DNA of 64,000 nt from Candidatus Poribacteria bacterium (GCA_965200205.1 CBDAUI010000002.1:599218-663217); one strand, 5' to 3'; positions 22,325-45,938 are shown, counted from the first letter of the stretch. Made by a program: numbers and translations. The notes: generated by a model from the sequence alone, not told the origin.

Positions 22325-24709
22325 CTATTCTTGCAGTTGTGCCCACTGACACCGCTGCTGCCATTCTTCTGCTTTTAGTAGGGTTCCGAGTGGTAACGCT
22401 TCATTTTTTGCAATCACAGAGAATGCGTTTATCGCAGTCTCGTAATCTTGCTGATGATATGCATTAATGCCTATTAATCTTCGTCCTTCTAAGGCAAGGT
22501 CCTTGTATTGTTGTTTCGTCAGCGGCAGTGGCGATGCTGTCTCATCGGAAACGGCTAATTTTTCTAATTGCGTCACTGCGCCATGAAGATATTGATTGCT
22601 GAGCTGCCACGCTTCTTCTCTATGCAGCAGTTCGCCGGCTAAGAGGGCTGCTAACCATGTCCCCTGTTCTGCTTGAAGGCATATTGATAAGGCAGCCATC
22701 TTCTCTGCTGCGTCTTTAGGCTCAACGAGGACTGAACGGAACAACTCACGAACAGATATTTCCGCTTGATGTGTCGCGTTCGCTTGCCCCTGGGTGCTGC
22801 CTTGGTAAGAGAGTGCTGCGATCCGTTTGGTGCGTCTACGCGCCATCGTTCCGTATTCAGTTTTAATAGAAGCGTAAGTGTAGATTGCTTTTTTGTGTTC
22901 ATTCCTTAACCAGTGAATATCGCCTTTCAACAGTATCGCTTCCGGACTGAATAGTGGGTCTTTTTTGCTTGCGATACGGTCTGCTAAGGATAACGCCGTG
23001 TCATAATCCTGCATCCGATACAGACTGTACATTAAGCCGCGTAGTGTGCTTAAGTTATCGGGTTCATCCGATAGCATTGTCTTAAAGGTTTCCACGGCAG
23101 TGAGAAAGTCTTTCCGATAAAAAGCCTGCCATGCGGTATTTCTTAACACCGCCATTTCATGGGCACAGACCCGTTCAAAAACACTACGTTGTTTTAGGCG
23201 GTAATTCGCGTAGGCTACATCCTCGTCTCGGAGCCGGACACTGTCCAAAAAAGTGAGCCATTCCTGTTCAAGTGAAGACAAATCCTTTGCATAGTGACGC
23301 AGAAAATTACCGGTAGGAAAGACGCTTTTAAATTTTTCTATGCCGTAGGTGTCAACAAGGAACCGGACGAAGGAGCCCGCCAACAAATAACTCCGAGAAC
23401 CGGCATGTCCCCAGAACCCGATACCCATAATGGCTGACAATGGCGGTGCGATCTCCATCTGGCGCATCGCTTTTGCCCACTGGTGTGCTGTAAGCTTGCC
23501 TTCATCCCAGTCCGCCGCAACTGCGATCCCTTCGTGGATTCCTATCTTCAGACTGACCTTCAGTGGGGACCACGGAACAGTAAAGACGTGTGCCAATTCG
23601 TGCTTGAGAACGGGATGCGGAAAACCTTGCGCGTGAATGTGGAACCCGTGTCCGAATGGATCTTCCACAGACGTGTCGCCTGCACCGGTTAACTTCTTTT
23701 TTTGATCGGTCGATGCATAGATATACGCTCGGACTTTTTGCGAGAGCTTTCCACCTTCGGGCATGAGATAGTCGACTAATTGCGCATACTGAAATTCGCA
23801 ATCCTCGGCAATCCGATCAATCTGCGTTTGGAGTTCGCGGGCATAAAAGATTTCAAAATGTGCGGTTTCACGAAAGCCCCCGAGTGCTTCGGCAATATCA
23901 TTGCGGGTCGGACGAATTCCCAATGCTCCGGCATAGAATTGGAAACCGGTGAGGCAGACAATTAGCAGGTATAAACCTACATGTTTCGCCAATGGATTCA
24001 GGAGTTTGCGCCACCTTAATTGCGGCATCAATTCGGTGTCTCGACTGATTTCACACATACTGACAGTCAGTCCCAAAAATAGGGCTGCCCACAGTAGTGT
24101 TTCAGCACGAGCGATGAGCAGTGTGCTTGTTATCGGAATGACGAAATCGTAAATCGGTCCAGGAAAATATCCAAATGTCGCGTGATACGCAAACACCGGC
24201 GGATGAAATACCAGATTGATGACCATTGGCACACAAGAGACCACGAGAAATCCGAGATACGCCAAGTATGCCAACCATCGTCTCTTAATCCAGAACCCGA
24301 AGAATACGCCTGCTGCCGTCGCGTATAGGCAGCTAATTAACGGTAATAGAAAAAAAAAGAGAAATCCTTCCGCAAAGTTGCAATTTTTAACACGAAGCGC
24401 GTTCAGCAGGATAATACCGAGCGGTAACACAAGTAGACTCAAGTTAAAGGTCAATGCACTCCAGAAGCACCGGCTGATGATTTGTCCCGATGAACCGGAT
24501 AGCACTTCGGGGTGCCGTTTCATCTGACGGACGACAGTGAGCGTTATATGTGCCCCAACCAAAGAGATGCTGAGTGCTAACACCGCGCAAAACTCAAAAG
24601 CGAGGATGTTAAACAGCGGCAAGTTAGCGAGTATGAGTCCCAACACACCGAATGTGGTAAACCATAGCCAATATGAAAATGTCTTGTGTATTGTCGGTTG
24701 TATGCGCAT
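22325..24709 (-). CDS. Polytopic membrane protein with gluzincin-like HExxH...E motif and C-terminal TPR repeats
   Basis: ~8 N-terminal TM helices; HELAHVF...GIHEGIAV, a HExxH with Glu ~27 residues downstream; C-terminal TPR-like helical repeats. Confidence 0.55.
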   Translation of the reverse strand: MRIQPTIHKTFSYWLWFTTFGVLGLILANLPLFNILAFEFCAVLALSISLVGAHITLTVVRQMKRHPEVLSGSSGQIISRCFWSALTFNLSLLVLPLGIILLNALRVKNCNFAEGFLFFFLLPLISCLYATAAGVFFGFWIKRRWLAYLAYLGFLVVSCVPMVINLVFHPPVFAYHATFGYFPGPIYDFVIPITSTLLIARAETLLWAALFLGLTVSMCEISRDTELMPQLRWRKLLNPLAKHVGLYLLIVCLTGFQFYAGALGIRPTRNDIAEALGGFRETAHFEIFYARELQTQIDRIAEDCEFQYAQLVDYLMPEGGKLSQKVRAYIYASTDQKKKLTGAGDTSVEDPFGHGFHIHAQGFPHPVLKHELAHVFTVPWSPLKVSLKIGIHEGIAVAADWDEGKLTAHQWAKAMRQMEIAPPLSAIMGIGFWGHAGSRSYLLAGSFVRFLVDTYGIEKFKSVFPTGNFLRHYAKDLSSLEQEWLTFLDSVRLRDEDVAYANYRLKQRSVFERVCAHEMAVLRNTAWQAFYRKDFLTAVETFKTMLSDEPDNLSTLRGLMYSLYRMQDYDTALSLADRIASKKDPLFSPEAILLKGDIHWLRNEHKKAIYTYASIKTEYGTMARRRTKRIAALSYQGSTQGQANATHQAEISVRELFRSVLVEPKDAAEKMAALSICLQAEQGTWLAALLAGELLHREEAWQLSNQYLHGAVTQLEKLAVSDETASPLPLTKQQYKDLALEGRRLIGINAYHQQDYETAINAFSVIAKNEALPLGTLLKAEEWQQRCQWAQLQE

Positions 24710-24884
24710 CTTTTGGATATCGAAAGTTGTATTTATTCTCTATTCTATTCAGATATCCGCTTTGTGTCAAGCAGAATTAAGCAGGCATTAAGGGCATTTA
24801 GTTTTCCACTGTAGGAGCGAGCTGTGCTCGCGATTTTCCAGCCAAAATGATTTACCGGATGTAACATAACTTTGAATAAAAGCA

Positions 24885-24914
24885 TTGACAAAAACCTGAT
24901 ATACAATGTATAAT
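24885..24914 (+). promoter_or_regulatory. Consensus sigma70-type promoter (TTGACA - 18 nt - TATAAT)
   Basis: Perfect -35 and -10 hexamers with an 18-nt spacer, in a 560-bp divergent intergenic region ~360 nt upstream of the WD40 gene. Confidence 0.5.
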
Positions 24915-25274
24915 TAACGTAAGTTTGATAAATACTTAAGACAGACGCATTTCCTCTTAAAGTCCCCCTGATAAGGGGGATTTAGGGGGTTGTATTTCTA
25001 AAAATTGCCGCTTTTTTCACGGAATATATTGCTTTTTGCCCAATTTGCGTCTGCCTCGGAAACCTCTAATGTTTTTTCAAACTGGCGTTATAATTAAAAC
25101 CGTTGATTTCGCGAATCATTAAAATTTTCGCGTCCTTTCTTTGTCAATTACCGTATGATTATCCCCCTTTAAGTGATCTTTCTACCTTAACGACTTTCAA
25201 CACGACACACGCGAATTTTGCCTTGAGGGCACCTAAATTTCAAAAGCCTTCCGACAATAACAGGAGACATTTTT

Positions 25275-27281
25275 ATGGAAAACAGGCGCACCGCTATCCC
25301 CGCGCTCAGATCACCTGACAACACAGATGTAACAACTTGGGAACTTCCCGATGGTGCGATTGCACGATTAGGTAGGGGAATCATAGCGGATTTGGCACTT
25401 TCGCCAAGTGGCGAATCCCTTGTAGCTGCAACGACTATGGGGTGCTGGCTCTATGAACTCCCTACCATGCAACCCATCGCATTGTGGGAAACCGAACGGG
25501 GCCTGGTTTCTACTGTCGCCTTTTCTCCCAATGGACAATGGATTGCCACCAGCAACTGGGACGGTATCATTAGGGTATGGGAAGCAGAGACGCAACAGTG
25601 CACTGCCAAAATACAAGGATGGTCCCTTCATATACAAGGATGGCACCTTCGTACCTCCCAACTTGCCTTCTCACCGGATAGCCAATACCTTGCTGCATCC
25701 GGCAAAGGTTACGGTGACGTTTATGTATGGAATACAACGACCGGCATGCACGTCGCAAGTTTCAGAGTCGCAGGGACTCCGAAAAAAGGCGAACGGCTAC
25801 CCGCCCGTTTTCCGCTCTGCTTTTCACCAGACGGGCAGTATCTCGCTTATGTTTCTGGTCGGATCACTCTCGCTGTCCGCCATATAGAGACGAAGGAACA
25901 CATCGCGCTCCTGAACCATTTCTCTCGAAAACACATACACGGTCTTGCTTTTTCACCGTGCGGACGGTTTCTCGCTGTTGGTGGTCAAAATACGTCTACC
26001 CATCGTCAGAACACTGAGCTGCAGGTATGGAATATTGATAAAGAGACCCTTGAAATGAAGGATTCGGGCTATGGTGGCGATAGGTTGATACCTGCCTACT
26101 CGTCTGATGGAACCTTTCGGGTTGCCGACGTGTATAAGGACAAAGTGGTACTGTGGGACGCATTCCGGCGAGAGAAACTTGATACTTTTGAATACGGAAG
26201 AAGTGCCAAAAAGACTTTTAGGTTTTCATCTGATGGGCAGCAATTCGCAATCGCCACGGAACGTGAGGTGCGCGTATGGCGCGCGGATGCACCGCTCACA
26301 TTAGTGTCTGATCTGAGGCATACGCGCATGGTTCGGACACTGTTCTTTATGCAAAATAGCAAGACATTGGTGATCGGATACAACGGCGAAAGCGGAATCG
26401 TGTTCTGGGACATTGTTCAGAAGCGAGCGCGGCAAACATTTAGTACTTATGCTGGACAGTGCGCTTTATCCCCGTGTGAAGAGATGTTGGCTACCACCGT
26501 TGGAGAAAACAACGAAACGATTGAAGTCTTGAATGTTACTTCGGGTACCGCGATTGCAACACTCACCAAACATCAAAGTTATGTAACTGCGCTTGCGTTC
26601 TCGCCTAACGGTGAACACCTTGTTAGCGGGGATGCCGAGGGAAACTTGTCCGTGTGGACTGTTGAGTCTTGGCAAGAATCGCGCGAACTCATCGGACATA
26701 CCAATGGGATTACAGCAGTGGCATTTCATCCGAATGGTTCGCAAGTTGTCACGGCATCCCGCGATCACACAGCGCGCGTCTGGGATATTGAGAGTGGAGA
26801 ACAGTTCGGATCGCCTTCTGTGGAGTTCACATTAGCGGATGCTTCCCTTTATAAAGGGGATTCACGGGAAATCCAGCGCCGTTTGAAACGAAGAGCAAAG
26901 GTGCTGGGGATCCGTACTGTCACGTTTTCACCTTGCGGTAATCTCATCGCGGGTAGATTATGGGGTGAGATCCGTTTGTGGGATGCAGCAACTTTGGAAC
27001 CGTGTATGGGGATAATTCTCCCTGAGAGTTGCTCCCGTGTCGGTGTCGTGGTATTTTCGCCATGTGGTCAATATCTCGCCTCCGGTTCTTGGTGGAACGA
27101 AACGGACAAAGTCTCCATCCGCGTATGGGAGGTTGCCACTGGGGAAAACGTTCATACCATCTGGAGTCATCCGACAGATATTCAGGATCTCGCTTTTTCA
27201 CCAGACGGTTCGCTCTTAGCGAGTGGGAGTTTTGACGGTACCGTTCTACTCTGGGATATGAAACCGTTTATAGATGTCTAA
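25275..27281 (+). CDS. WD40 repeat protein (likely two beta-propellers)
   Basis: ~14 WD40 repeats, e.g. GHTNGITAVAFHPNGSQVVTASRDHTARVWD and SVAFSPNGQWIATSNWDGIIRVWE. Confidence 0.85.
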   Translation: MENRRTAIPALRSPDNTDVTTWELPDGAIARLGRGIIADLALSPSGESLVAATTMGCWLYELPTMQPIALWETERGLVSTVAFSPNGQWIATSNWDGIIRVWEAETQQCTAKIQGWSLHIQGWHLRTSQLAFSPDSQYLAASGKGYGDVYVWNTTTGMHVASFRVAGTPKKGERLPARFPLCFSPDGQYLAYVSGRITLAVRHIETKEHIALLNHFSRKHIHGLAFSPCGRFLAVGGQNTSTHRQNTELQVWNIDKETLEMKDSGYGGDRLIPAYSSDGTFRVADVYKDKVVLWDAFRREKLDTFEYGRSAKKTFRFSSDGQQFAIATEREVRVWRADAPLTLVSDLRHTRMVRTLFFMQNSKTLVIGYNGESGIVFWDIVQKRARQTFSTYAGQCALSPCEEMLATTVGENNETIEVLNVTSGTAIATLTKHQSYVTALAFSPNGEHLVSGDAEGNLSVWTVESWQESRELIGHTNGITAVAFHPNGSQVVTASRDHTARVWDIESGEQFGSPSVEFTLADASLYKGDSREIQRRLKRRAKVLGIRTVTFSPCGNLIAGRLWGEIRLWDAATLEPCMGIILPESCSRVGVVVFSPCGQYLASGSWWNETDKVSIRVWEVATGENVHTIWSHPTDIQDLAFSPDGSLLASGSFDGTVLLWDMKPFIDV

Positions 27282-27482
27282 AACTGCCTACCCCGATTTA
27301 TTGGTCGTAGATACCTATGAAACTCTATGCAGAATTTTCTTGCAGTTTAAGGTAAAATGTGTTAAAATACGATGTGATAAGTTTCACACGGCGGTGCAAA
27401 GTTGTGCGAAACAATATTGACACAACGCGTAAAACACTACAGCGAGGTTGCGCTTTTGGAATACGCAACAGGAGGAACTGAA

Positions 27483-28325
27483 ATGGCAAATGGAATTTCA
27501 CGATTTTTTAAGTCGATATGGTATACGTTAACAGGCCGCGCCCATGAGGCAGCGGATCGAATGATGGAAAACCCCGAAGCCGTTAGAGGGGCTTACGAAG
27601 ACATCATCAGCGATAAGAAAGGGAATATTCAGCGCTATAAACAGGCGATCGGCCAGCTTATCGCACTCGTGGAACGCAAGAAATCCACGGTAAAGAACCT
27701 TACCGACGAAGTCGAAAAGTTGGAAGAATTGAAATCTGGGGCAATCGCTAAGGCACAGCAGACCGCTGCGGACCTGCAAGCACAAGGAATGGCACCCGAA
27801 GAAGTCAAACAGCATGCTGAATATGTACGCTGCGTTACGGCTTACCAAGAATTCAATACCAATCTGGAAGACAAAACCAGACAAATTTCCGAGTTGGAAA
27901 ATGATATTCAAGAGGCGCAAGCCGGTATTGACAACCATAAAATCCAGATTACCAGTCTACATCGCGATTTAGAACAGATTAAGGATGAACAGTCTGAAGC
28001 GGTTGCTGATCTGATTACTGCGCGAGAGCAAGAGGAGATCGCCGATATGCTTTCGGGGATTAGTATGGATGGGACCTCTGCTGAACTGACCCGGATGCGC
28101 GAAATCCGCGAAAAGGCGAAAGGACGTTCAGTCGTCGCACAGGAATTGGCTGGTACCGATTCACGCTCCGAAGAGGAGGAATTCCTCGCCGCTGCGCGGT
28201 CGTCTTCAACCTCTGACGAATTTGACGCTCTGATTTTCGGGGCACAGCAGACAGATACACAGACCGGAACAGAAACAGAGTCCGCTAAGAAGGCAGAGGA
28301 TTCCGATTCTGAACTGCCGCTCTAA
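27483..28325 (+). CDS. PspA/IM30/Vipp1-family (bacterial ESCRT-III-like) coiled-coil protein
   Basis: Collinear with PspA/Vipp1: amphipathic N-terminus, MENPEAV (cf. AEDPEKM), ALVERKK (cf. ALERKK), long coiled coil, SAELTRMREIREKA (cf. SAMSAFERMEEKV), acidic tail. AGGAGG RBS before the ATG. Confidence 0.7.
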   Translation: MANGISRFFKSIWYTLTGRAHEAADRMMENPEAVRGAYEDIISDKKGNIQRYKQAIGQLIALVERKKSTVKNLTDEVEKLEELKSGAIAKAQQTAADLQAQGMAPEEVKQHAEYVRCVTAYQEFNTNLEDKTRQISELENDIQEAQAGIDNHKIQITSLHRDLEQIKDEQSEAVADLITAREQEEIADMLSGISMDGTSAELTRMREIREKAKGRSVVAQELAGTDSRSEEEEFLAAARSSSTSDEFDALIFGAQQTDTQTGTETESAKKAEDSDSELPL

Positions 28326-28437
28326 CGTGCCACTTACAAGTGTCTCGCAGCGACGCGAGTTTGCTATCTAAAACTGAAGGGGGCGATAACTCATACCTGT
28401 TAAAAGCCCGACCTACGCCTTCCGCTCAGAAGCCGGA

Positions 28438-30261
28438 ATGCTCATTAACTCTGGGACATCTCGGAGTCTCGTCCTGTCTGGAAATATCCACGATCTCTTT
28501 TTTTTTAAAGAAGAAGATAGTACGGATTATATTCCACTCGTCCCCTTTTTAACACACAGTTGGGATATACCTGGATTCATCCTGATCGTTTATGAACTCA
28601 ACGGGCCCATACGTTTCGCGCAGGAGTCGGACCGCGAAAAGGTGAAACATGCCTTCAACCGATGGCGAGGGACAGCCGAATCTGACACTGATATAGATGC
28701 CCCACCCAGCACCTCGCGCCGCCGCGAGTCTATCGTTGGATCACTTGACACCGCTATAGAACCCTCTAATGTCTCTTTCTCACAGTACATGACGGATGCG
28801 ATCGGCAGCCCGACGCTTGCGCTCGAACTCCTCCGCCAGTTTTGTCTACTTTCGCGTAGCACAAACAGAGATGGCGAAAAATTTCTCTCTGAAAAACTGA
28901 TTATCCTCATAGAAGCAGCCGATATGCTGCTGCCAGAAGGCGAAATACGCGGTTTGTCACTTCAGGATAGGCATCGGGTCAGTATCGTTCAAGACTGGAT
29001 TTCCGATTCCAATTTCATGAACGGTAACGATACTGTCATCTTCGTTACAGAATCTGCCAGTCTTCTAAACTCTCGGATTATTAGGTTGCCACAGGTTGTC
29101 AACGTTGAAATCCCGGCACCGGGGATGTCGGAGCGTCAGCACTTCATTTCGTGGTTTAATAACACGCCGCAATTGATCGCGAAACCGTTAAACCTATGGG
29201 GTACACAAGCGCAACTCGCAATGCTGACAGCCGGATTATCCATACAGGCACTCCGCCAAATGCTGCTCTACGCCTGTTATTCCGGTGAGAAACTTCAACC
29301 CGAAGATGTTATTGAGAAGGTTTCTGAATTCATCCAGACCCAGTTGGGTGAAGATGTTGTCGAGTTTAAAAAGCCTGCACACAGCCTAAAAGACATCGTC
29401 GGTAACCGAAAGTTAGTGGATTTCCTAAAAACGCAGTTGATTCCGCGTATCACCTCAACGGGTCCCGACGCGATTCCGGGAATGAGCGTCTGCGGTCCCA
29501 TCGGCAGCGGAAAAACCTTTATTTTTGAGGGACTCGCCGGTCAACTCGATATCCCGGTCCTCGTCCTCAAGAACATCCGGAGTATGTGGTTCGGACAGAC
29601 AGATGTCATCTTTGAACGACTCCGACGGTTACTGATGGCACTGGTGAAGGTGTTAATCTTTGTTGACGAAGCGGATACGCAATTTGGAGGTGTCGGGAGG
29701 GAGGCACACAGCACAGAACGGCGTTTGACGGGAAAAATACAGGCGATGATGTCGGACCCGCAGCTGCGTGGCAATATCACATGGCTTCTGATGACTGCCC
29801 GAATCTATAACCTCTCACCTGATTTACGACGCGAAGGCAGAGTCGGGGATATGGTGGTTCCGGTATTGGATCCGCGCGGTGAAGACCGTGAGGATTTCCT
29901 ACGCTGGACGATTGCGAAGGTCTCCTCCAGTCCGTTTTCTGAGGAAGATATTCAACGACTCCTGAAAGTAACCGAGGACTATTCTGCCGCGAGTTTCGCC
30001 TCGCTACGTTCCGACCTTGAAGCCGCCAGTCTTATCAAAGCGAGCTCAGAAACAACCGGTGAGCTTACAATCGATGAAATCATCGCTGTCGCCGAAGATC
30101 GGATCCTACCGAATATCGGACCCATAAGACAGTATCAAACCTTGCAAGCACTCCTCAATTGCACACGAAAATCTTTACTCCCCGTGGACTATTCCCCAGA
30201 AATCCGTGAATCGTGGGCGAAACAGATTGCCCAACTCGAAGCATTGGGTGTTAGGGGATAG
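28438..30261 (+). CDS. Classical-clade AAA ATPase with ~330-aa uncharacterized N-terminal region
   Basis: Walker A GPIGSGKTF; Walker B LIFVDEAD; sensor-1/second region of homology LLMTARIYNLSPDLRREGRVGD (cf. ATNRPD.LDPALLRPGRFD). Confidence 0.75.
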   Translation: MLINSGTSRSLVLSGNIHDLFFFKEEDSTDYIPLVPFLTHSWDIPGFILIVYELNGPIRFAQESDREKVKHAFNRWRGTAESDTDIDAPPSTSRRRESIVGSLDTAIEPSNVSFSQYMTDAIGSPTLALELLRQFCLLSRSTNRDGEKFLSEKLIILIEAADMLLPEGEIRGLSLQDRHRVSIVQDWISDSNFMNGNDTVIFVTESASLLNSRIIRLPQVVNVEIPAPGMSERQHFISWFNNTPQLIAKPLNLWGTQAQLAMLTAGLSIQALRQMLLYACYSGEKLQPEDVIEKVSEFIQTQLGEDVVEFKKPAHSLKDIVGNRKLVDFLKTQLIPRITSTGPDAIPGMSVCGPIGSGKTFIFEGLAGQLDIPVLVLKNIRSMWFGQTDVIFERLRRLLMALVKVLIFVDEADTQFGGVGREAHSTERRLTGKIQAMMSDPQLRGNITWLLMTARIYNLSPDLRREGRVGDMVVPVLDPRGEDREDFLRWTIAKVSSSPFSEEDIQRLLKVTEDYSAASFASLRSDLEAASLIKASSETTGELTIDEIIAVAEDRILPNIGPIRQYQTLQALLNCTRKSLLPVDYSPEIRESWAKQIAQLEALGVRG

Positions 30262-30367
30262 TAAGAAAAATGCTGCATTAGTACGCGACGCAATTTTGTG
30301 CTATAATGGTAATGTGTAACGAACACAGTGTGGTGTTTTATAACAACATTTCAGAAGGAGAAGTACC

Positions 30368-30661
30368 ATGTCATATTCTGATGCTACCTCTGAAACCATC
30401 GCCGCCCGCGGCGAAGAAATCTATCAGCAGTACCGCGAAGAACTCGAAGCTCAACACAAAGGTCAGTTTTTTGTAGTTGACATTGAAACGGAAAACTATG
30501 AAATCGCCGATGAGGATTTGGAAGCGACAAAACGTCTGCTTGCTAAGAATCCCAAGGCTATGACTTACGGGGTGCGAATCGGATACCCGGCCACCCACGG
30601 TATCGGCTTCAGCTTCGTAGAATGGAATGTGGAATACTATAATGATAACAGGGAAAATTAG
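30368..30661 (+). CDS. Small conserved hypothetical protein (copy A of a duplicated pair)
   Basis: 97 aa; ~65% identical to the 31022-31288 product (shared SETIAARGEEIYQ...FVVDIETENYEIADEDLEAT); preceded by a TGnTATAAT extended -10 at 30298-30306. Confidence 0.6.
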   Translation: MSYSDATSETIAARGEEIYQQYREELEAQHKGQFFVVDIETENYEIADEDLEATKRLLAKNPKAMTYGVRIGYPATHGIGFSFVEWNVEYYNDNREN

Positions 30662-31010
30662 AGACGAACGTGTAGCTATCATTGAAGTGGAAGTGATCGG
30701 CTTAAATCAACGCGCGAAAATTGAGGCAACTCTTGATACCGGATTTACGGGCTATCTGACACTACCAGAGTTTTTAGTTGACTACTTAAGGCTTCCATAG
30801 ATTGGTACTCGGCACACAATTATTGCTCATGGAAGAGCAGTAATCCTTGACCTGTATCTTGCCAAAGTGATTTGGCACGGCAAAGAACGCGATATAGAAG
30901 TTCTGCAAACAGACAAGCAACCGTTAATCGGTATGTCGTTGCTTCGCGGAAGTCGTGTAACACTTGATGTTGTGCCAGATGGCGACGTAACGATTGCTCC
31001 GCTGCGATAG
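30642..31010 (+). pseudogene. Retropepsin-like (clan AA) aspartic protease gene with an in-frame TAG at 30798-30800
   Basis: MITGKIRDERVAIIEVEVIGLNQRAKIEATLDTGFTGYLTLP carries the catalytic D-T-G. The same frame continues after the TAG with ...VILDLYLAKVIWHGKERDIEVLQTDKQPLIGMSLLRGSRVTLDV, a retropepsin C-terminal-like segment. The ATG overlaps the 3' end of the upstream small gene. Confidence 0.55.
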
Positions 31011-31021
31011 GGAGAATCACT

Positions 31022-31288
31022 ATGCTATATTCTGATGAGACCTCCGAAGCCATCGCTGCCCGCGGTGAAGAAATCTATCAGTCCTTGAAGGATGAGCTTG
31101 AATCTCAATACAAAGGCAAAATTTTTGTAGTTGACATTGAAACAGGGAACTATGAAATTGATGATGAGGATTTAGAAGCTACAGCCTGTCTCTTTGCGAA
31201 GAATCCCGACGCTGTTACTTATGGTTTACGCATTGGCTTCGTACCTATCTATAAACTCGGTTTTAGATCTTACGGTTGGAAACCTTAA
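31022..31288 (+). CDS. Small conserved hypothetical protein (copy B)
   Basis: 88 aa paralog of the 30368-30661 product. Confidence 0.6.
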   Translation: MLYSDETSEAIAARGEEIYQSLKDELESQYKGKIFVVDIETGNYEIDDEDLEATACLFAKNPDAVTYGLRIGFVPIYKLGFRSYGWKP

Positions 31289-31373
31289 CCGTGGTTTTCC
31301 ATTATCAATAAAAGCGAAAGGTGTTTCAGTAAAATCTCAAAACAGATCCATATTCAAACAACTTTCAATCACA

Positions 31374-32920
31374 ATGTGGCATATCGCAACTTTTGCTTTT
31401 CTTCTATTCTGCATAACAACCGTAGTTCCCGCCCAAACTGTTGAGCAAATTGCTGAAAAAGCATTAGCGGCTACGGTCTACTTGGAGATGAAGGACAGCA
31501 CCGGCAAAACCATCGGATTTGGTAGTGGTTTCTTCGTGACGGAAAATCTGATCGCTACGAACTATCACGTCATAGAAGGTGCAGCAACTGGTACTGCACG
31601 ATTAGTGCAAAACACTCGAAATACGCCCAAGCTTAACCCTGAGTTGAATAAAGCCCACATTAATTTCATTAATAAATACGAGACATACACTATCGAAGGG
31701 TCTACTGCTACTGACGAAACAAACGATCTTGTACTCTTAGAGGTATCGACACGTATCAAGGATCCAGATTTATTGAAAATTTATAGGCAACTATTCCCTA
31801 TCCAACCTCTGTCTATTGGTAACAGCGCCGAAGTCAAAACTGGGACACTGGTATACGTTGTGGGAAATCCAAAAGGCTTAGAAGGTACATTCTCAAGTGG
31901 CATTATCAGCAGTCGTCGCAGGAGGCTCACTGAGGAACGCCTACAGATGACAGCTCCAGTTTCCCCGGGGAGCAGCGGTGGGCCTGTCCTAAATAATAAA
32001 GGTGAAGTAATTGGAATCGCCTTTATGACTATTGAAGGCGGACAGAATCTTAATTTTGCGATTCCCTCAAACTACCTTAAAACACTACTCCTTCAATCTG
32101 GAACAGTAAAACCCCTGTCAGAGAACGAACAATCCATCTCCGCGGAGACGTATTTCCTACGAGGCGAGGCGATGAGGGAGATGGAACTATATGAGGAAGC
32201 AATTGCAGCTTATGACCAAGCAATACGTCTAAAACCAGATTATGTTGAAGCATATAACGAACGGGGCGTTGCCAAAATTATGCTAGGACAATATTTCGCC
32301 GCTATTGCTGATTTTGACCAGGCAATACAACTCAAACCCGATTATGCAGATGCATATACACATCGTGGAACTGTGAAGACAATTCTAGACCAAAATTCTG
32401 CCGCGATTGCCGATTATGATAGGGCAATTCAAATAACACCTGATGATGCCTTTGTGTACCATTTTCGTGGTATGGCAAAAGAAACTTTGAAACAATATTT
32501 TGCTGCTATCTCCGATTTTGACAAGGCCATAAAACTAAAACCTGACTTTGCCGAAGCATATCACAAGCGGGGGAGATAAAGATCGTTCTCGGTCAACCTC
32601 GTGCTGCCATCTCTGATTTCAACAAAGCCATAGAATTAAAACCTGATGATGCTGAAATATACTATAGTCGGGGATCCGTGAAAGGATTTCTGAAGCAATA
32701 CTTTGGTGCCATCTCTGACTTTGACAAGGCTATAGAATTAAAACCTGATTTTGCCAAAGTATACGTCAGTAGAGGCATTTCAAAGCACAAACTGGGACAA
32801 ACTTGGGAGGCAAAACGGGATATCCAAATAGGGTTGAAAATTGCTGAACGGACAGGTGATACAGATACCAAGGATCTTGCCGAGCTTACACTTCGTTTTC
32901 TTGAAACCAGTGGAAGATGA
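31374..32920 (+). CDS. Secreted trypsin-like (S1) serine protease with C-terminal TPR repeats; frameshifted at a G5 homopolymer near 32569-32573
   Basis: Signal peptide MWHIATFAFLLFCITTVVPAQT. S1 domain (GFGSGFFVTENLIATNYHV; TAPVSPGSSGGPVLN with the catalytic Ser). 34-aa TPR repeats continue seamlessly across the frame change (…AEAYHKRG | EIKIVLGQPRAAISDFNKAIELKPDD…). Confidence 0.7.
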
Positions 32921-33195
32921 AAACTAAATGTTATGTTTGCTATGCAACGCGAACTTGACTGTATGCCGTCAGACGAACGCTACGCAAGGTTTGAACAGCG
33001 TCAAAAAGAGATGGAAGTACTATCGCTTTTGAGGATAATCAGGGTAATACGGACGAACATATCGATGAACTTCATGGGATTTGGGGTGATATTTATCAGA
33101 CCGTTGGTCTCCAACAAGGACTAAGTACCGAGGCTCTAAGATTTGGTGCAACACTCATATCACCTACTCCACTCAGTAAGCCCCTTGGCGAGGAA

Positions 33196-34029
33196 ATGGC
33201 TGTTACAAATTTCACCGAACAAGTTGGGGCAAACACGTCCGAAGCTCTTAAGGTTTCAAAGTGGCTGCTAAAAGTTACAAAAGCAGTCGATAAGTTTCTG
33301 GGAGATATGCGGGGTTCCAGAGAAGCCGTAACCGAAATTGCCCATGCGCGGTTGCTGGCGGTAGCAATTATCTTATCAGATTTTTGTTTGAATGATAAGA
33401 CAAAGCTTCTTAATGAATGGGAGAAAACAACGTTCAGGATTTTCGGACTCCTTGATAAGGATGCTCGCACAGGGGTTGGAAATTATGTGAGATTGGCTCG
33501 CGATATCTGGAAGAATCCTGAGTTAAGTGCCGATGACATTTTAGATAAGATACAGGAAATTGGAACGTTGTATCACATTGACGATTTACTCAATCAACCG
33601 GAAGGCACGAATTGGTACGAAGGTTGGGAGACAGAACTTCGATATTTGTTGTTCCGTTACGAGGAGCATCTGGCTAAACAGCTGGGACAAAAGTTTGATA
33701 ACGAGCAGTGGCGGCGTATGTGGGAAGATTCACCTTCACGCTCTGTTGAACACATTTTTCCACAGTCGAAAGGTAGCCAGGAGCCCTTAAGAGATAGTCA
33801 AGAAGGTATTTACGTTCATAGACTTGGAAACCTTTTGCTCTTACCACCAGGCCTCAATTCAAAGCTGGGGAATAAGGATCCGGAAGATAAGGCACCTTGC
33901 TATAGGCAGACCGGACTTTTCAGTGCTGCCGATGTCGCGCGAACGATTGATGAGTATGGTTGGGGAGCAGATCAGATTAAAGAACGAGAGCAGCGGATGA
34001 TAACATGGATTCGCGAGAAATGGGGATAG
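33196..34029 (+). CDS. DUF1524 (GmrSD C-terminal, His-Me finger/HNH-like nuclease) domain protein
   Basis: SVEHIFPQSKG...VHRLGNLLLLPPGLNSKLGNK matches the DUF1524 signature; no DUF262 N-terminal domain present. Confidence 0.6.
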   Translation: MAVTNFTEQVGANTSEALKVSKWLLKVTKAVDKFLGDMRGSREAVTEIAHARLLAVAIILSDFCLNDKTKLLNEWEKTTFRIFGLLDKDARTGVGNYVRLARDIWKNPELSADDILDKIQEIGTLYHIDDLLNQPEGTNWYEGWETELRYLLFRYEEHLAKQLGQKFDNEQWRRMWEDSPSRSVEHIFPQSKGSQEPLRDSQEGIYVHRLGNLLLLPPGLNSKLGNKDPEDKAPCYRQTGLFSAADVARTIDEYGWGADQIKEREQRMITWIREKWG

Positions 34030-34260
34030 GGAGGGATTACATCTCGTTCATGAACCTCCTATAAATTTTCGCGGATATGACGGGTCAGTTCTGTGCAAGA
34101 TAGAGCAACCGATTTCCCAATGCCGAAGCACGCCCTCCGGGGTCTAATCTCAACTGCCCAGATGCCGAGTTCTCGCGTAAAGTAAAATCTATGAATACAA
34201 GATTAATTAGCACAAGTCGTAAACATCGGAGGTGCTGAACAATAGCACTTTAAGGGGAGT

Positions 34261-36084
34261 TTGTTAATGGCACATCACCACAACCCAGCATCCGTGGATG
34301 CCTACTTCCGACAAGGCAATTCGCTCTACGAGATGGAGCTCTACGAGGAAGCTATTGATGCCTATACCAGCGCAATCCGGTCTAATCCGGATACTATTAC
34401 CGTCTTCTACAACCGAGGCCTCGCCAAGGCGAAACTCGGACGATATGCCGACGCTATAAAAGACTTTGACATCGCCATACGCCGGAAACCCGATTTTGCT
34501 GAAGCCTACTACAGTCGCGGAAACGCTAACGCCAACCTTAAACAACACCGCCAAGCCGTCACTGAATACGATAAGGCAATACGATACAAACCCAATTACG
34601 TCGAAGCTTACATGGACCGGGGTGCTGCGAAACTTTTCCTCGGTCAGCATGCTGAGGCCCTAAAAGACTATGACTTCGTTATACAACACAGCCCCAATGA
34701 AGTCATAGCATACTATAATCGCGGATTGATCAAAGCTGAACTCGGACAATACGCAGCCGCTATCGCGGATTTTGATGAAGCCATACAACGCAATCCGAAT
34801 GACACTGAGGTTTACATCGACCGGGGAACTGCGAAGTTTAACTGCCATCAATATGCCCTAGCTGTCCAAGACTATGACAAAGCGATACAACGCAATCCGG
34901 ATAGAGCTGATACGTACTACAAGCGCGGAGTTGCAAAGAGTAGACTCGGTCAACACGCAGCGGCTCTTGAAGACTATGACAAAGCGATACAACTCAAGCC
35001 CGACTATGCTGAAGCCTATGATAGCCGAGGCGTGACAAAAGCCGCCCTTGGCGAGTATACTGAAGCTATCAAAGATTATGACGTGGCGATACGATGCCAA
35101 CCCCACTCTGCCGAAACCTATAACAATCGAGGGGTCGCGAAACAGGAACTCGGTCAATACGCAGCGGCTCTTGAAGACTATGACAAAGCGATACAACTCA
35201 AGCCTGATTATATCAAAGCTTATAACAATCGGGGGGTCGCGAAACGGGAACTCGGTGAATATGCCGCTGCTGTCGCTGATTATGACATCGCCATCCGATG
35301 TGACCCCGATTATGCGGAAGCCTATTGTAATCGTGCGGCTGCGAAGACGAAACTCGGTCACCACGATGCCGCTATTGCAGATTTAGACACAGCAATACAT
35401 CTCAATCCGAATAATGCTGCCCCGTATTACAATCGCGGGGCTGTGAAGGTCACCCAGGGCGAACCCGTAGCCGCTATCGCGGATTTTGATGAAGCCATAC
35501 AACGCAATCCTGACCTTATCGAGGCCTATTACAATCGCGGATTTGCTAAGGGGAATCTTTGTCAATATACCGAGGCAATACAAGACTTTGACATCGTGAT
35601 ACAGCGGAAACCTGAGGATGCACAAACCTATCTCATGCGCGGGAGTCTAAAGTCGGCCCTCGGTCAATATGCCGAGGCTATACAGAACTTTGACACTGCC
35701 CTACAATACAACCCTGATGATGTCAAAATTTACGTCGCTCGCGGTACTGCAAGGGCTGCCTGTGGTCAATATACTGAAGCCGTAGAAGACTTTGACATCG
35801 CACTTCAGTATAACCTCGAAATTGACTTTGTTTACCTCTACCGCGGACATGCCAAAGCAAAACTCGGCCAATACCCGGACGCTATACAGGACTTTGACAC
35901 GGCGGCACGTCTCAATCCGAATGACCCCCAACTCCCTCTCCTAAAGGCAGGAGCGAAATTAGAATTAGAGAGAGCTCAGGAGGCGAAACAGGATCTTCGC
36001 ACGGCTTTGAGACTCGCGAAAAAGAAAGGCGATGCGGACCTGATAACCCACATTGAGAAAACATTGTGTAGCCTCAAAGAGTAA
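34261..36084 (+). CDS. TPR repeat protein (~16 regular 34-aa repeats)
   Basis: Near-periodic AEAYYNRG.AK..LG.Y..AI.DYD.AI...P repeats; 102-bp periodicity is also visible at DNA level (e.g. near-identical segments at 34945-35004 and 35147-35206). Confidence 0.85.
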   Translation: MLMAHHHNPASVDAYFRQGNSLYEMELYEEAIDAYTSAIRSNPDTITVFYNRGLAKAKLGRYADAIKDFDIAIRRKPDFAEAYYSRGNANANLKQHRQAVTEYDKAIRYKPNYVEAYMDRGAAKLFLGQHAEALKDYDFVIQHSPNEVIAYYNRGLIKAELGQYAAAIADFDEAIQRNPNDTEVYIDRGTAKFNCHQYALAVQDYDKAIQRNPDRADTYYKRGVAKSRLGQHAAALEDYDKAIQLKPDYAEAYDSRGVTKAALGEYTEAIKDYDVAIRCQPHSAETYNNRGVAKQELGQYAAALEDYDKAIQLKPDYIKAYNNRGVAKRELGEYAAAVADYDIAIRCDPDYAEAYCNRAAAKTKLGHHDAAIADLDTAIHLNPNNAAPYYNRGAVKVTQGEPVAAIADFDEAIQRNPDLIEAYYNRGFAKGNLCQYTEAIQDFDIVIQRKPEDAQTYLMRGSLKSALGQYAEAIQNFDTALQYNPDDVKIYVARGTARAACGQYTEAVEDFDIALQYNLEIDFVYLYRGHAKAKLGQYPDAIQDFDTAARLNPNDPQLPLLKAGAKLELERAQEAKQDLRTALRLAKKKGDADLITHIEKTLCSLKE

Positions 36085-36119
36085 AAATCGGTAAGCGTGG
36101 AACCTATGAGAACCTCGCG

Positions 36120-37268
36120 TCAACTGAGGTTAATAATCTCTCCAGTTGCTGCAGAGCGATACCCCGCGCAGATGATTTCGACGGAATGCACAGCAAATTC
36201 GGCGTTCATCTCGCTCTCTATGCCGTTCTCAATACAATCCACAAACGCACTGAACTCTCGTGGCCCATCGTCTCCGCTGCCGACATCTATCCACTGCTGT
36301 TTCGGGCGCATACCGCTCTCCGCTTGTGTACTACTCCACATCCCCATCGGATCGAGCGGATGCGGGGTCGGCGGTTCAAACGCCGGTTCAGCAGCAAACA
36401 CTTCCAGACGGTTCGCTGAAGCATCAAACGTCAAGCTCCCTTCGGTGCCGATGAGGTGTACCTTCCGAACACCGCCTTGTGCGTGACTCTGCCAACCGTA
36501 GCGTCCGCTGGTAATTGTCGCTGTCGTACCATCTTCTAACGTCAGCACCAATGCACCGAAATCTTCGAGATCACAGTCGAGATGCTCTTTGAAGAAATAG
36601 TTCGCTGTTCCACCAAACACGCGCTGCACCCGTTTCTGTGTCAGCCAATTCACCATAGACACCGCATAGACCCCGACATCGAACATCTCAGGCTTCGCTT
36701 CAACGAAACTATAGCGCTCCAGTGTAGGTTTTTGGATTCTTTTCTCTCCAACGGGTGCGGTGCCGGGATGTCCCTTGGAGAAAAGCACATCGCAATGGAT
36801 CGCTTGAAGTTCACCGATACGTCCACTGGTCAATGCGCGCTGAACCGTGCGTGCCCACGTACTATGGATATTACTGAACATCTGGGTTCGCACGCCGCTT
36901 TTTGAGACCGCTTCAACAATCCTGTTCGCATCGTCAGGGTTGAGTGCCATCGGTTTATCGAGATAGACGTGTTTTCCCGCTTCCGCACATTTTGCACCGA
37001 CACGTCCACGACGTTCCACCTCCGTGCAGAGGCTGACGATATGAACATCCTCACGTGCCAAAGCGTCGTCGAGATCACGGATGAAAGGTAGATTTAACGA
37101 TTCTGCGAGCGAACGTGCCAGTGCCACCCGTTCTGGTGGTGCATCGAGTTCATCGGCAAACGCGATCAATCGGCAGCGTTCGTCTTGTTCAAAAAGCGAG
37201 GCGTAATTCTCCTGATGTGTGCGGTATCCGCCGAGCAGAAGCACACCGTATTTTCCGTTTTGCCGCAT
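36120..37268 (-). CDS. Gfo/Idh/MocA family NAD(P)-dependent oxidoreductase
   Basis: N-terminal Rossmann fold (YGVLLLGGYRTHQENY...) and family-typical C-terminal domain. Confidence 0.85.
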   Translation of the reverse strand: MRQNGKYGVLLLGGYRTHQENYASLFEQDERCRLIAFADELDAPPERVALARSLAESLNLPFIRDLDDALAREDVHIVSLCTEVERRGRVGAKCAEAGKHVYLDKPMALNPDDANRIVEAVSKSGVRTQMFSNIHSTWARTVQRALTSGRIGELQAIHCDVLFSKGHPGTAPVGEKRIQKPTLERYSFVEAKPEMFDVGVYAVSMVNWLTQKRVQRVFGGTANYFFKEHLDCDLEDFGALVLTLEDGTTATITSGRYGWQSHAQGGVRKVHLIGTEGSLTFDASANRLEVFAAEPAFEPPTPHPLDPMGMWSSTQAESGMRPKQQWIDVGSGDDGPREFSAFVDCIENGIESEMNAEFAVHSVEIICAGYRSAATGEIINLS

Positions 37269-45248: not shown

Positions 45249-45938
45249 ATGCAACAACCGCGCGCTGCGACATCTTCGCTAAAAATATCTCACTTATTCA
45301 AAGACTTCGGAGCCGTCAAGGTCCTGCAGAACATTTCGTTGAGTCTCACCGGTGGCACATCCACCGTTATCACGGGTCCCTCCGGTTCCGGTAAGAGTAC
45401 ACTCTTACACATCATCGGCACATTAGAAGAACCCTCGAATGGAATTGTGGAAATTAACAATATAAATCCATTTGCGCTCTCTGAACCTGAACTGGCACAG
45501 TACCGCAATTCCGTGATCGGATTTGTGTTTCAAGAACACCACCTGCTTCCGCAATATTCCGTGCTTGAGAATGTCCTGATTCCGACGCTCGCTTTCAAAC
45601 AGGGATCCGATGCGACCGAGCGCGCCGCTCAGCTCCTAAAACGGGTTGGACTCACGGATCGTCAATCCCATCGACCTGCCGAACTTTCAGGGGGCGAACG
45701 GCAACGCGTCGCGATTGCGCGTGCGCTTATCAATCAACCGGACATCCTCCTCTGTGATGAACCGACAGGCAACCTGGACACCGCTACGACCGATACCGTC
45801 GCCAATTTGCTTTTTGAGCTGCATCGTGCTGAGAAAACTATATTGATTGTGGTGACACATAACCTCGCACTCACTTCCCGCTTTGACCGACATCTGCAAT
45901 TGGTGGATGGCACTTGCACCGTCGAAAGAGATACTTAA
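45249..45938 (+). CDS. ABC transporter ATP-binding protein (LolD/MacB/FtsE type)
   Basis: Walker A GPSGSGKST, signature LSGGERQRVAIARAL, Walker B ILLCDEPT. Confidence 0.9.
   Translation: MQQPRAATSSLKISHLFKDFGAVKVLQNISLSLTGGTSTVITGPSGSGKSTLLHIIGTLEEPSNGIVEINNINPFALSEPELAQYRNSVIGFVFQEHHLLPQYSVLENVLIPTLAFKQGSDATERAAQLLKRVGLTDRQSHRPAELSGGERQRVAIARALINQPDILLCDEPTGNLDTATTDTVANLLFELHRAEKTILIVVTHNLALTSRFDRHLQLVDGTCTVERDT

Follow-up and report, generated by a model that had tools for sequence, protein, structure and literature searches.

A conserved gene pair of a PspA-like protein and a predicted two-tier AAA ATPase in a Candidatus Poribacteria genome

How bacteria, without Vps4, take apart or recycle ESCRT-III-type polymers such as those of PspA and Vipp1 is not settled, and a locus in the genome of a Candidatus Poribacteria bacterium, a sponge symbiont, offers a concrete and testable candidate in the form of a gene pair encoding a PspA-like protein and an AAA protein. 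The whole stretch of DNA analysed, 64 kb long (64,000 nt), is called the window below, and positions are counted from its first letter. Three genes on the plus strand raise the question: they encode a WD40 protein (25275–27281, 668 amino acids), a PspA-like protein (27483–28325, 280 amino acids from its ATG) and an AAA protein (28438–30261, 607 amino acids). The original prediction had read these genes, separated by 110–200 bp and placed behind a perfect promoter, as a three-gene operon and a possible membrane-remodelling module. The open reading frames (ORFs) and their spacing were borne out by ORF calls and, for the WD40 gene, by Pfam, with gaps of 201 bp between the WD40 and PspA-like genes and of 112 bp between the PspA-like and AAA genes. 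Our analysis leads to a smaller unit, namely a two-gene module of the PspA-like gene and a dedicated type-II AAA gene, probably with its own promoter, in which the AAA protein would remodel PspA polymers via their C-terminal tail, the WD40 gene and its consensus promoter being an insertion. We consider this reading somewhat more likely than not. The association of PspA with such an AAA protein has already been published as a computational prediction (Ravi et al. 2024, mSystems, PMC11237479), which is confirmed and sharpened here.

Loci of the AAA family were scanned using one genome per GTDB species. The scan returned 73 loci, 71 of which encode true family members, from Poribacteria, Planctomycetota, Verrucomicrobiota, Hydrogenedentes, Sumerlaeota, Acidobacteriota and others. 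A PspA ortholog on the same strand was found within the fetched flank in 44 of the 71. In 17 of these 44 loci the genes are direct neighbours, with less than 300 bp between them, and in the remaining 27 other conserved operon genes intervene; flanks were too short for judgement in 20 of the 71. The PspA-AAA linkage is conserved across many phyla, so that the pair of PspA and AAA makes up the conserved unit. As to the functional linkage first proposed for the three genes, the part concerning PspA and AAA stood, and the part concerning the WD40 gene did not, as that gene accompanies the other two in the window and in a close relative, L001, but in none of the other loci.

Among the 71 family loci, a WD40 ortholog occupied the same position only in L001, whose AAA protein is 83% identical to that of the window. 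It was absent at the locus from the equally close L011 (83% identity) and from the other 69. In L011, a conserved divergent gene of 800 amino acids is followed directly by PspA. Because its ortholog is in place only in the window and L001, and missing in L011 and the other loci, we place the WD40 gene outside the module; among the relatives, the three-gene neighbourhood was recovered in L001 alone. The protein itself, matched by many WD40 and beta-propeller Pfam models, reads as a WD40 double-propeller protein, a lineage-specific neighbour carried by an inserted cassette.

The promoter noticed at the outset is indeed perfect. It is of the sigma70 type, TTGACA-18-TATAAT on the plus strand (24885–24914), with 12 of 12 positions matched, and it is the sole perfect match within the window, where 0.05 would be expected by chance. 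It precedes the ATG of the WD40 gene by 360 nt, and L001 keeps it upstream of its WD40 ortholog as TTGACA-17-TATAAT. From this conservation pattern, the perfect promoter is assigned to the WD40 gene and not to the conserved PspA-AAA module. The most parsimonious reading of the aligned loci would be that a PspA-AAA unit with a promoter of its own existed first, and that a WD40 cassette, bringing along its strong promoter, was inserted upstream of it; read-through from the WD40 promoter into the pair is possible. The leader of the WD40 gene has features of its own. A segment of about 190 bases (24916–25105), extra with respect to L001, stands between the consensus promoter and a conserved leader block; it holds a C5/G5 hairpin-like sequence, CCCCCTGATAAGGGGGATTTAGGGGG (24964–24989), which occurs once in the window, as well as a second TATAAT (25091–25096), and it had no Rfam match.

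If the perfect promoter goes with the WD40 gene, what drives the pair? Upstream of the PspA-like gene, on the plus strand, stands a promoter-like element composed of TTGCAG (27340–27345), a 17-nt spacer ending in TGn, and TAAAAT (27363–27368). It was read from the alignment; a simple scan omitted the element, since its −35 hexamer matches only 3 of 6 positions. Conservation extends over the full 32-nt block in the window, L001 and L011, the last of which is devoid of the WD40 gene. Because it is kept there, the PspA-AAA unit has a putative promoter of its own, and the block at 27340–27368 is probably that promoter. The operon of three genes behind one promoter therefore gave way on two counts, the lack of the WD40 gene in L011 and the persistence of the PspA block in the same locus.

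Translation signals of the two genes differ. For the PspA-like gene an alternative TTG start exists at 27402, and the ATG at 27483 is preferred because a strong Shine-Dalgarno sequence, AGGAGG (27470–27475, plus strand), stands 7 nt ahead of it. At the AAA start, the ribosome-binding context is weak yet conserved, which would fit co-transcription of the pair with reduced AAA output. RNA folding of the PspA-AAA spacer gave no significant structure (z 0.59), and a terminator-like hairpin at 28344–28359 is weak, its sequence not being conserved. A search of 24600–30500 against Rfam returned zero matches.

The middle gene had been described as collinear with PspA/Vipp1, and this held. Pfam PspA_IM30 (PF04012) matched residues 9–244 of the 280-residue protein at 37.2–37.5 bits, above the cutoff of 33.9 (E 3e-9). 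The same model at E ≤0.01 matched just 6 of 18 orthologs, which marks a divergent subfamily. With the single sequence, phmmer against the PDB gave Vipp1 at a non-significant E of 0.13; with a profile of the 18 orthologs, drawn from several phyla, the top 8 PDB matches were all Vipp1 or PspA (E 9e-7). The alignment was collinear, pairing query residues 37–96 with 28–87 and 135–249 with 101–212, that is, the hairpin and alpha3-alpha5. By these profile comparisons the protein is a genuine, divergent member of the PspA/Vipp1 branch of the ESCRT-III superfamily.

Both ends of the PspA-like protein are conserved. At the N-terminus, the amphipathic helix alpha0, MANGISRFFKSIWYTLTGR, follows a pattern present in all aligned orthologs, M-x-x-x-I-x-R-F/Y-F-K/R-A-I/V-W-Y-x-L-T-G-R, and is comparable to alpha0 of PspA and Vipp1. 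In the ortholog alignment the C-terminal tail consists of a motif D-E-F-D-x-L-I-(F/G) (residues 245–252; 28215–28238, plus strand), then a variable acidic linker, then a terminal motif (E/K)-L-P-(L/E/V) at the extreme C-terminus (28311–28322, plus strand). E246 and F247 are nearly invariant across phyla; in the terminal motif P279 is nearly invariant. The tail is absent from the extra PspA paralogs of other Poribacteria loci, which are not linked to AAA. This distribution makes DEFDxLI ... LP-x a candidate recognition element for the AAA protein.

What kind of ATPase is the partner? Pfam recognised the AAA domain (PF00004, residues 351–470, E 6e-14), weakly AAA_22, and nothing else. In phmmer searches of the PDB the best matches were VAT, Cdc48 and p97 (E ~1e-15), followed by spastin (1e-8) and Vps4 (1.6e-7). 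Per-domain scores were nearly equal, with 37.2 bits for VAT D1, 36.9 for spastin and 33.5 for Vps4. In the sequence and structure comparisons the AAA domain appears roughly as far from FtsH and p97 as from Vps4, with no apparent preference for Vps4 over Rix7, VAT or FtsH. Placement in the classical clade, already proposed, was supported by PF00004, by phmmer and by the structural neighbours, which are classical AAA proteins. The protein had also been set apart from PspF, and its Pfam scan agrees: it contained no bacterial enhancer-binding protein (bEBP) domain (PF00158) and no helix-turn-helix (HTH), although no search aimed at the GAFTGA loop was made.

The N-terminal 330 residues had been left as a region of unknown type, possibly a MIT-like bundle. 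A search of 1.84 billion cluster representatives delimited a large family, with 241 clusters at E ≤1e-30, and the named close matches of the window protein were all from Poribacteria. Because most of the best-scoring clusters have about 560–620 amino acids and matched over their entire length, the N-terminal region is a conserved part of the family. Its profile aligned by hhalign with the family's own D2 profile, at 95.6% probability (E 1e-8). The alignment paired LIILIEAADMLLP, a Walker B-like segment, with the D2 Walker B motif VLIFVDEADTQFG, and ran on through the lid; in place of the P-loop stands LSGNIHDLF. We therefore replace the MIT-like proposal by a predicted degenerate AAA domain, D1 (28438–29337, plus strand, approximately residues 1–300), on the combined evidence of hhalign, AlphaFold2 (AF2) and Foldseek. 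It begins at about residue 10 and is alpha/beta and AAA-like in the model, residues 83–110 forming a disordered insert.

An AlphaFold run with a shallow, Poribacteria-only alignment (19 sequences, at least 86% identical) reached a mean predicted local distance difference test (pLDDT) of 38, and a run with 74 diverse sequences from the profile search reached a pLDDT of 87.5 and a predicted template modelling score (pTM) of 0.77. Foldseek aligned the latter model over 500–640 columns with the tandem AAA proteins Rix7, p97, Cdc48, Pex1/Pex6 and Drg1. Against Rix7 without its N domain, the template modelling score was ~0.5 over ~620 columns; against Pex1, 462 residues were aligned. Because hhalign relates D1 to D2 and Foldseek aligns both domains, we assign the protein to the type-II classical AAA proteins, with a predicted build like that of Rix7, Cdc48 and Pex1/6, composed of a degenerate D1 and an active-looking D2.

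D2 (29395–30042, plus strand, approximately residues 320–535) has the classical motifs: Walker A GPIGSGKT (K359), Walker B VDEAD (D410, E411), and arginines R465 and R468 of the second region of homology (SRH). Pore loop 1 reads R-S-M-W384-F-G, where the family has R-S-x-W-F-G-x-T-D, the SxWFG core being similar to that of Cdc48 D2. Walker A, Walker B, pore loop 1 and the SRH arginines are invariant in the 74 sequences. In all of these close sequences the sensor-1 position is alanine (Ala454 here; residues 453–455, 29794–29802), giving TAR for TNR, whereas every other motor motif is intact. Beyond D2, alignment and AF2 delimit a family-specific helical extension at the C-terminus (30055–30258, plus strand), with an invariant motif R564-x-Y-Q-T-L-Q-A-L-x-N-C-T-R-x-S-L-L-P582.

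In Planctomycetota, Verrucomicrobiota, Acidobacteriota and some Poribacteria, for example in L014, L015, L028, L057 and L071, the pair is part of an extended operon with the order C2-C4-C5-C3-C1(PspA)-C6-C8-C7-C0(AAA). C2 is a solute-binding protein (SBP) of the NMT1 type, of about 613 amino acids, C4 a vWA protein with a transmembrane segment, C5 an SBP+OmpA protein, C3 a transmembrane coiled-coil protein, C6 a 370-residue protein without Pfam match, C8 a permease and C7 an ABC ATPase. Pfam gave the identities NMT1, OmpA, BPD_transp_1 and ABC_tran; of the two large NMT1-type SBP proteins, OmpA was confirmed in one. Other Poribacteria have a different order, with the transmembrane coiled-coil gene, two to three PspA genes, a gene for a ~600-residue protein (C10, no Pfam match) and AAA. 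C10 lies between PspA gene(s) and AAA in L002, L004, L005, L007, L009 and L064 (for example L005:5619–7421). A search of the window for C2 to C6, C8 and C10 found none, the one exception being a generic ABC ATPase at 45324–45911. Because the genes of the extended operon were not found in it, the window locus is a minimal PspA-AAA dyad, and this two-gene form separates the core pair from the transporter genes found elsewhere.

Some further loci deserve mention. In certain Pirellula loci AAA-C2-C4 is preserved and the flank contains no PspA, and from Clostridia a single locus was recovered (L072), which matches distantly and over the AAA domain alone. Two loci come from cultured strains, Acanthopleuribacter pedis KCTC 12899 (L070) and Haloferula rosea KCTC 22201 (L071), whose versions of the operon are distant (29–34% AAA identity); the extended operon is nearly complete in L071 and present for the greater part in L070, each with a PspA gene. 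C3 was considered as a homolog of PspA or Snf7, and this was unsupported (hhalign probability 0.6%).

The linkage across phyla, the domain architectures and the conserved motifs together suggest how such a pair would work. The alpha0 helix would put the PspA-like protein on the cytoplasmic membrane, where it would polymerise like PspA, Vipp1 and ESCRT-III. The AAA protein would assemble as a double-ring hexamer, the degenerate D1 ring forming a scaffold or docking tier independent of nucleotide, and the D2 ring, with its intact Walker motifs, aromatic pore loop and arginine fingers, being the motor. This motor would contact PspA by gripping its acidic tail, made of the DEFDxLI helix and the terminal LP-x, and would pull subunits from the polymer by threading them through D2. 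In such a scheme the ATPase would act on PspA and not the reverse, and the polymer would be recycled or remodelled, as Vps4 does on ESCRT-III.

Several points weigh against this scheme. The PspA-AAA interaction, PspA polymerisation and ATPase activity are all predicted from sequence and model, and so is co-transcription of the two genes in this genome. No PspA was found in 7 of the 71 loci in which the flank reaches at least 5 kb on each side. In most other phyla the AAA gene ends a larger operon, so the substrate could be the transporter, the OmpA protein or the vWA protein. At sensor-1, distant family members have Ala, Ser or Thr, and by eye Cys or Val, Asn being never found family-wide; to judge from the alignment, this loss could make the enzyme a slow or atypical hydrolase.

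The position of AAA at the end of larger operons is the starting point of one alternative, in which the ATPase mainly serves envelope and transport machinery (SBP-OmpA, vWA-transmembrane protein and ABC transporter), perhaps extracting or assembling membrane proteins, while PspA stabilises the stressed membrane and the Poribacteria dyad is a reduced remnant. Recurrence of the extended operon in the phyla listed above is in line with it, as are the Pirellula loci in which AAA-C2-C4 subsists and the flank has no PspA. However, PspA and AAA are adjacent with the other components not nearby in 17 loci, the window included, and the PspA tail motif goes with the subfamily that is linked to AAA; on balance we hold this alternative to be unlikely. 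Gene linkage also fits either direction of action, and E. coli PspA is known to bind and inhibit the AAA+ protein PspF (PMC7619361), so that PspA might be a regulator or adaptor of the AAA protein and not its substrate, membrane stress then freeing the ATPase for other clients. Against such a role, Pfam detects neither a DNA-binding nor a sigma54-interaction domain in the AAA protein, the pore loop is aromatic and of the translocase type, and the conserved, unstructured, acidic tail of PspA resembles a threading handle. We regard the regulatory role as doubtful.

The WD40 gene could still belong to the machine, if the three genes were one operon transcribed from the consensus promoter and the propeller a functional subunit of a membrane-remodelling module. 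The genes do share a strand, gaps are short, no strong terminator separates them, read-through from the strong promoter is possible, and another AAA+ protein linked to PspA, one with beta-propeller repeats fused to it, is mentioned by Ravi et al. (PMC11237479). What makes this reading improbable is that the WD40 gene adjoins the pair in the window and L001 alone, being absent from L011 and all other loci, that the consensus promoter travels with it, and that the promoter-like block of PspA is conserved in its absence. Moreover, Poribacteria show a great expansion of eukaryote-like repeat genes, those for WD40 proteins among them. A part in anti-phage defence would be suggested by the variable region downstream, with its GmrSD_C nuclease and protease-TPR gene. 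That region is missing in L001, PADLOC gave only weak, generic coiled-coil and P-loop matches on PspA and AAA, and in other phyla it is transporter and envelope genes that accompany the pair as conserved partners, so that a defence role appears very improbable. The reading of a PspA-AAA module in which the ATPase remodels PspA polymers is the one we retain.

A bolder version of the polymer-remodelling reading can be formulated. An independently recruited, Cdc48-like double-ring AAA protein would disassemble PspA polymers via a tail similar to a MIT-interacting motif (MIM), as a bacterial counterpart of ESCRT-III/Vps4, and could drive endomembrane or vesicle dynamics beyond stress repair. Planctomycetota, Verrucomicrobiota and Poribacteria are noted for internal membranes or compartmentation, and because the loci come largely from these phyla, an endomembrane role is possible; we put this extension forward tentatively, as a speculation that is rather unlikely. 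If true, it would contradict statements that bacteria have no Vps4-like regulator of ESCRT-III (PMC7619361; PMC10936438).

On the downstream side of the AAA gene, approximately 6 kb (30262–36119) separate it from the next conserved gene (36120–37268, minus strand), and this segment is absent in L001. It contains two small paralogous ORFs (30368–30661 and 31022–31288) without family match, a fusion of a trypsin-like protease with TPR repeats (~31194–32579), a GmrSD_C/DUF1524 nuclease (33196–34029) and a 14-repeat TPR protein (34261–36084). PADLOC matches there are at the domain level only, and the segment may be a variable or defence-like islet. On the upstream side, a near-consensus promoter TTGACA-17-TAGAAT (24770–24742, minus strand, 11 of 12 positions) diverges from that of the WD40 gene and faces the gene for a 794-residue membrane/TPR protein with a HELAH motif (22325–24709, minus strand). 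A block at this divergent promoter, TGTCAAGCAGAAT, is kept in L001 and L011.

How does the pair compare with known systems? By comparative genomics, Ravi et al. described a dyad of PspA and a protein of the architecture Inactive-Classical-AAA+Classical-AAA (examples AEY64321.1/AEY64320.1 and the OGG56892.1 neighbourhood), which in some cases forms part of longer operons that also encode an ABC ATPase, a permease and a PBPB+OmpA protein, and for which they proposed ATP-dependent membrane remodelling comparable to Snf7/Vps4 (PMC11237479). Our literature searches found no experimental study of this dyad. The present locus and its relatives match the published description in architecture and operon content: a PspA-family gene stands beside one whose product has two AAA domains of the classical clade, the first of them inactive, and relatives have extended operons with ABC ATPase, permease and SBP+OmpA proteins. 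It differs in that the window has a bare dyad, PspA then AAA, with neither transporter genes nor a transmembrane coiled-coil partner, and in that the transmembrane coiled-coil protein of relatives, C3, has no match to PspA detectable by hhalign. Details added here are the dead D1 tier, the conserved PspA tail, the loss of the sensor-1 Asn and the two cultured carriers.

The Psp system of Gammaproteobacteria (PspF-PspABC) likewise couples a PspA-family effector genetically to an AAA+ protein, but PspF is a sigma54 bEBP with an HTH, whereas the AAA protein here is of the classical clade. PspB and PspC, for which no dedicated search was run, were not among the Pfam matches of six ORFs in and around the locus. 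Vipp1/IM30 of cyanobacteria and chloroplasts is the best match among solved structures, with collinear alpha1-alpha5 and a similar amphipathic helix; the match is nevertheless distant (profile E ~1e-6), the tail differs, and the protein here has a dedicated ATPase partner.

Pex1/Pex6, Rix7/NVL, Cdc48/VAT and Drg1/AFG2 share with the AAA protein the D1+D2 fold, and its D2 pore loop has SxWFG as in Cdc48 D2. Unlike them, it has no separate N-terminal adaptor domain, its D1 is wholly without a P-loop, the sensor-1 Asn is absent, and a family-specific helical extension closes the chain. With respect to Cdc48, p97 and VAT in particular, the N domain (double-psi barrel) and the Walker A of D1 are missing, and the NCBIfam CDC48 model gives 35 bits, its cutoff being 803.

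Recent reviews hold that bacteria lack an ATPase of the Vps4 type, or an ESCRT system in its complete form (PMC7619361; PMC10936438). As in ESCRT-III/Vps4 (CdvB/CdvC), a gene of the ESCRT-III superfamily stands here beside that of a classical-clade AAA protein with an aromatic pore loop, and the acidic C-terminal tail carries a short conserved helix positioned like MIM motifs. Unlike Vps4 and CdvC, this ATPase has no MIT domain and has two AAA tiers instead of one, and its presumed polymer partner belongs to the PspA/Vipp1 branch and not to the Snf7 branch. The simplest reading is that the AAA protein was recruited independently and is not an ortholog of Vps4.

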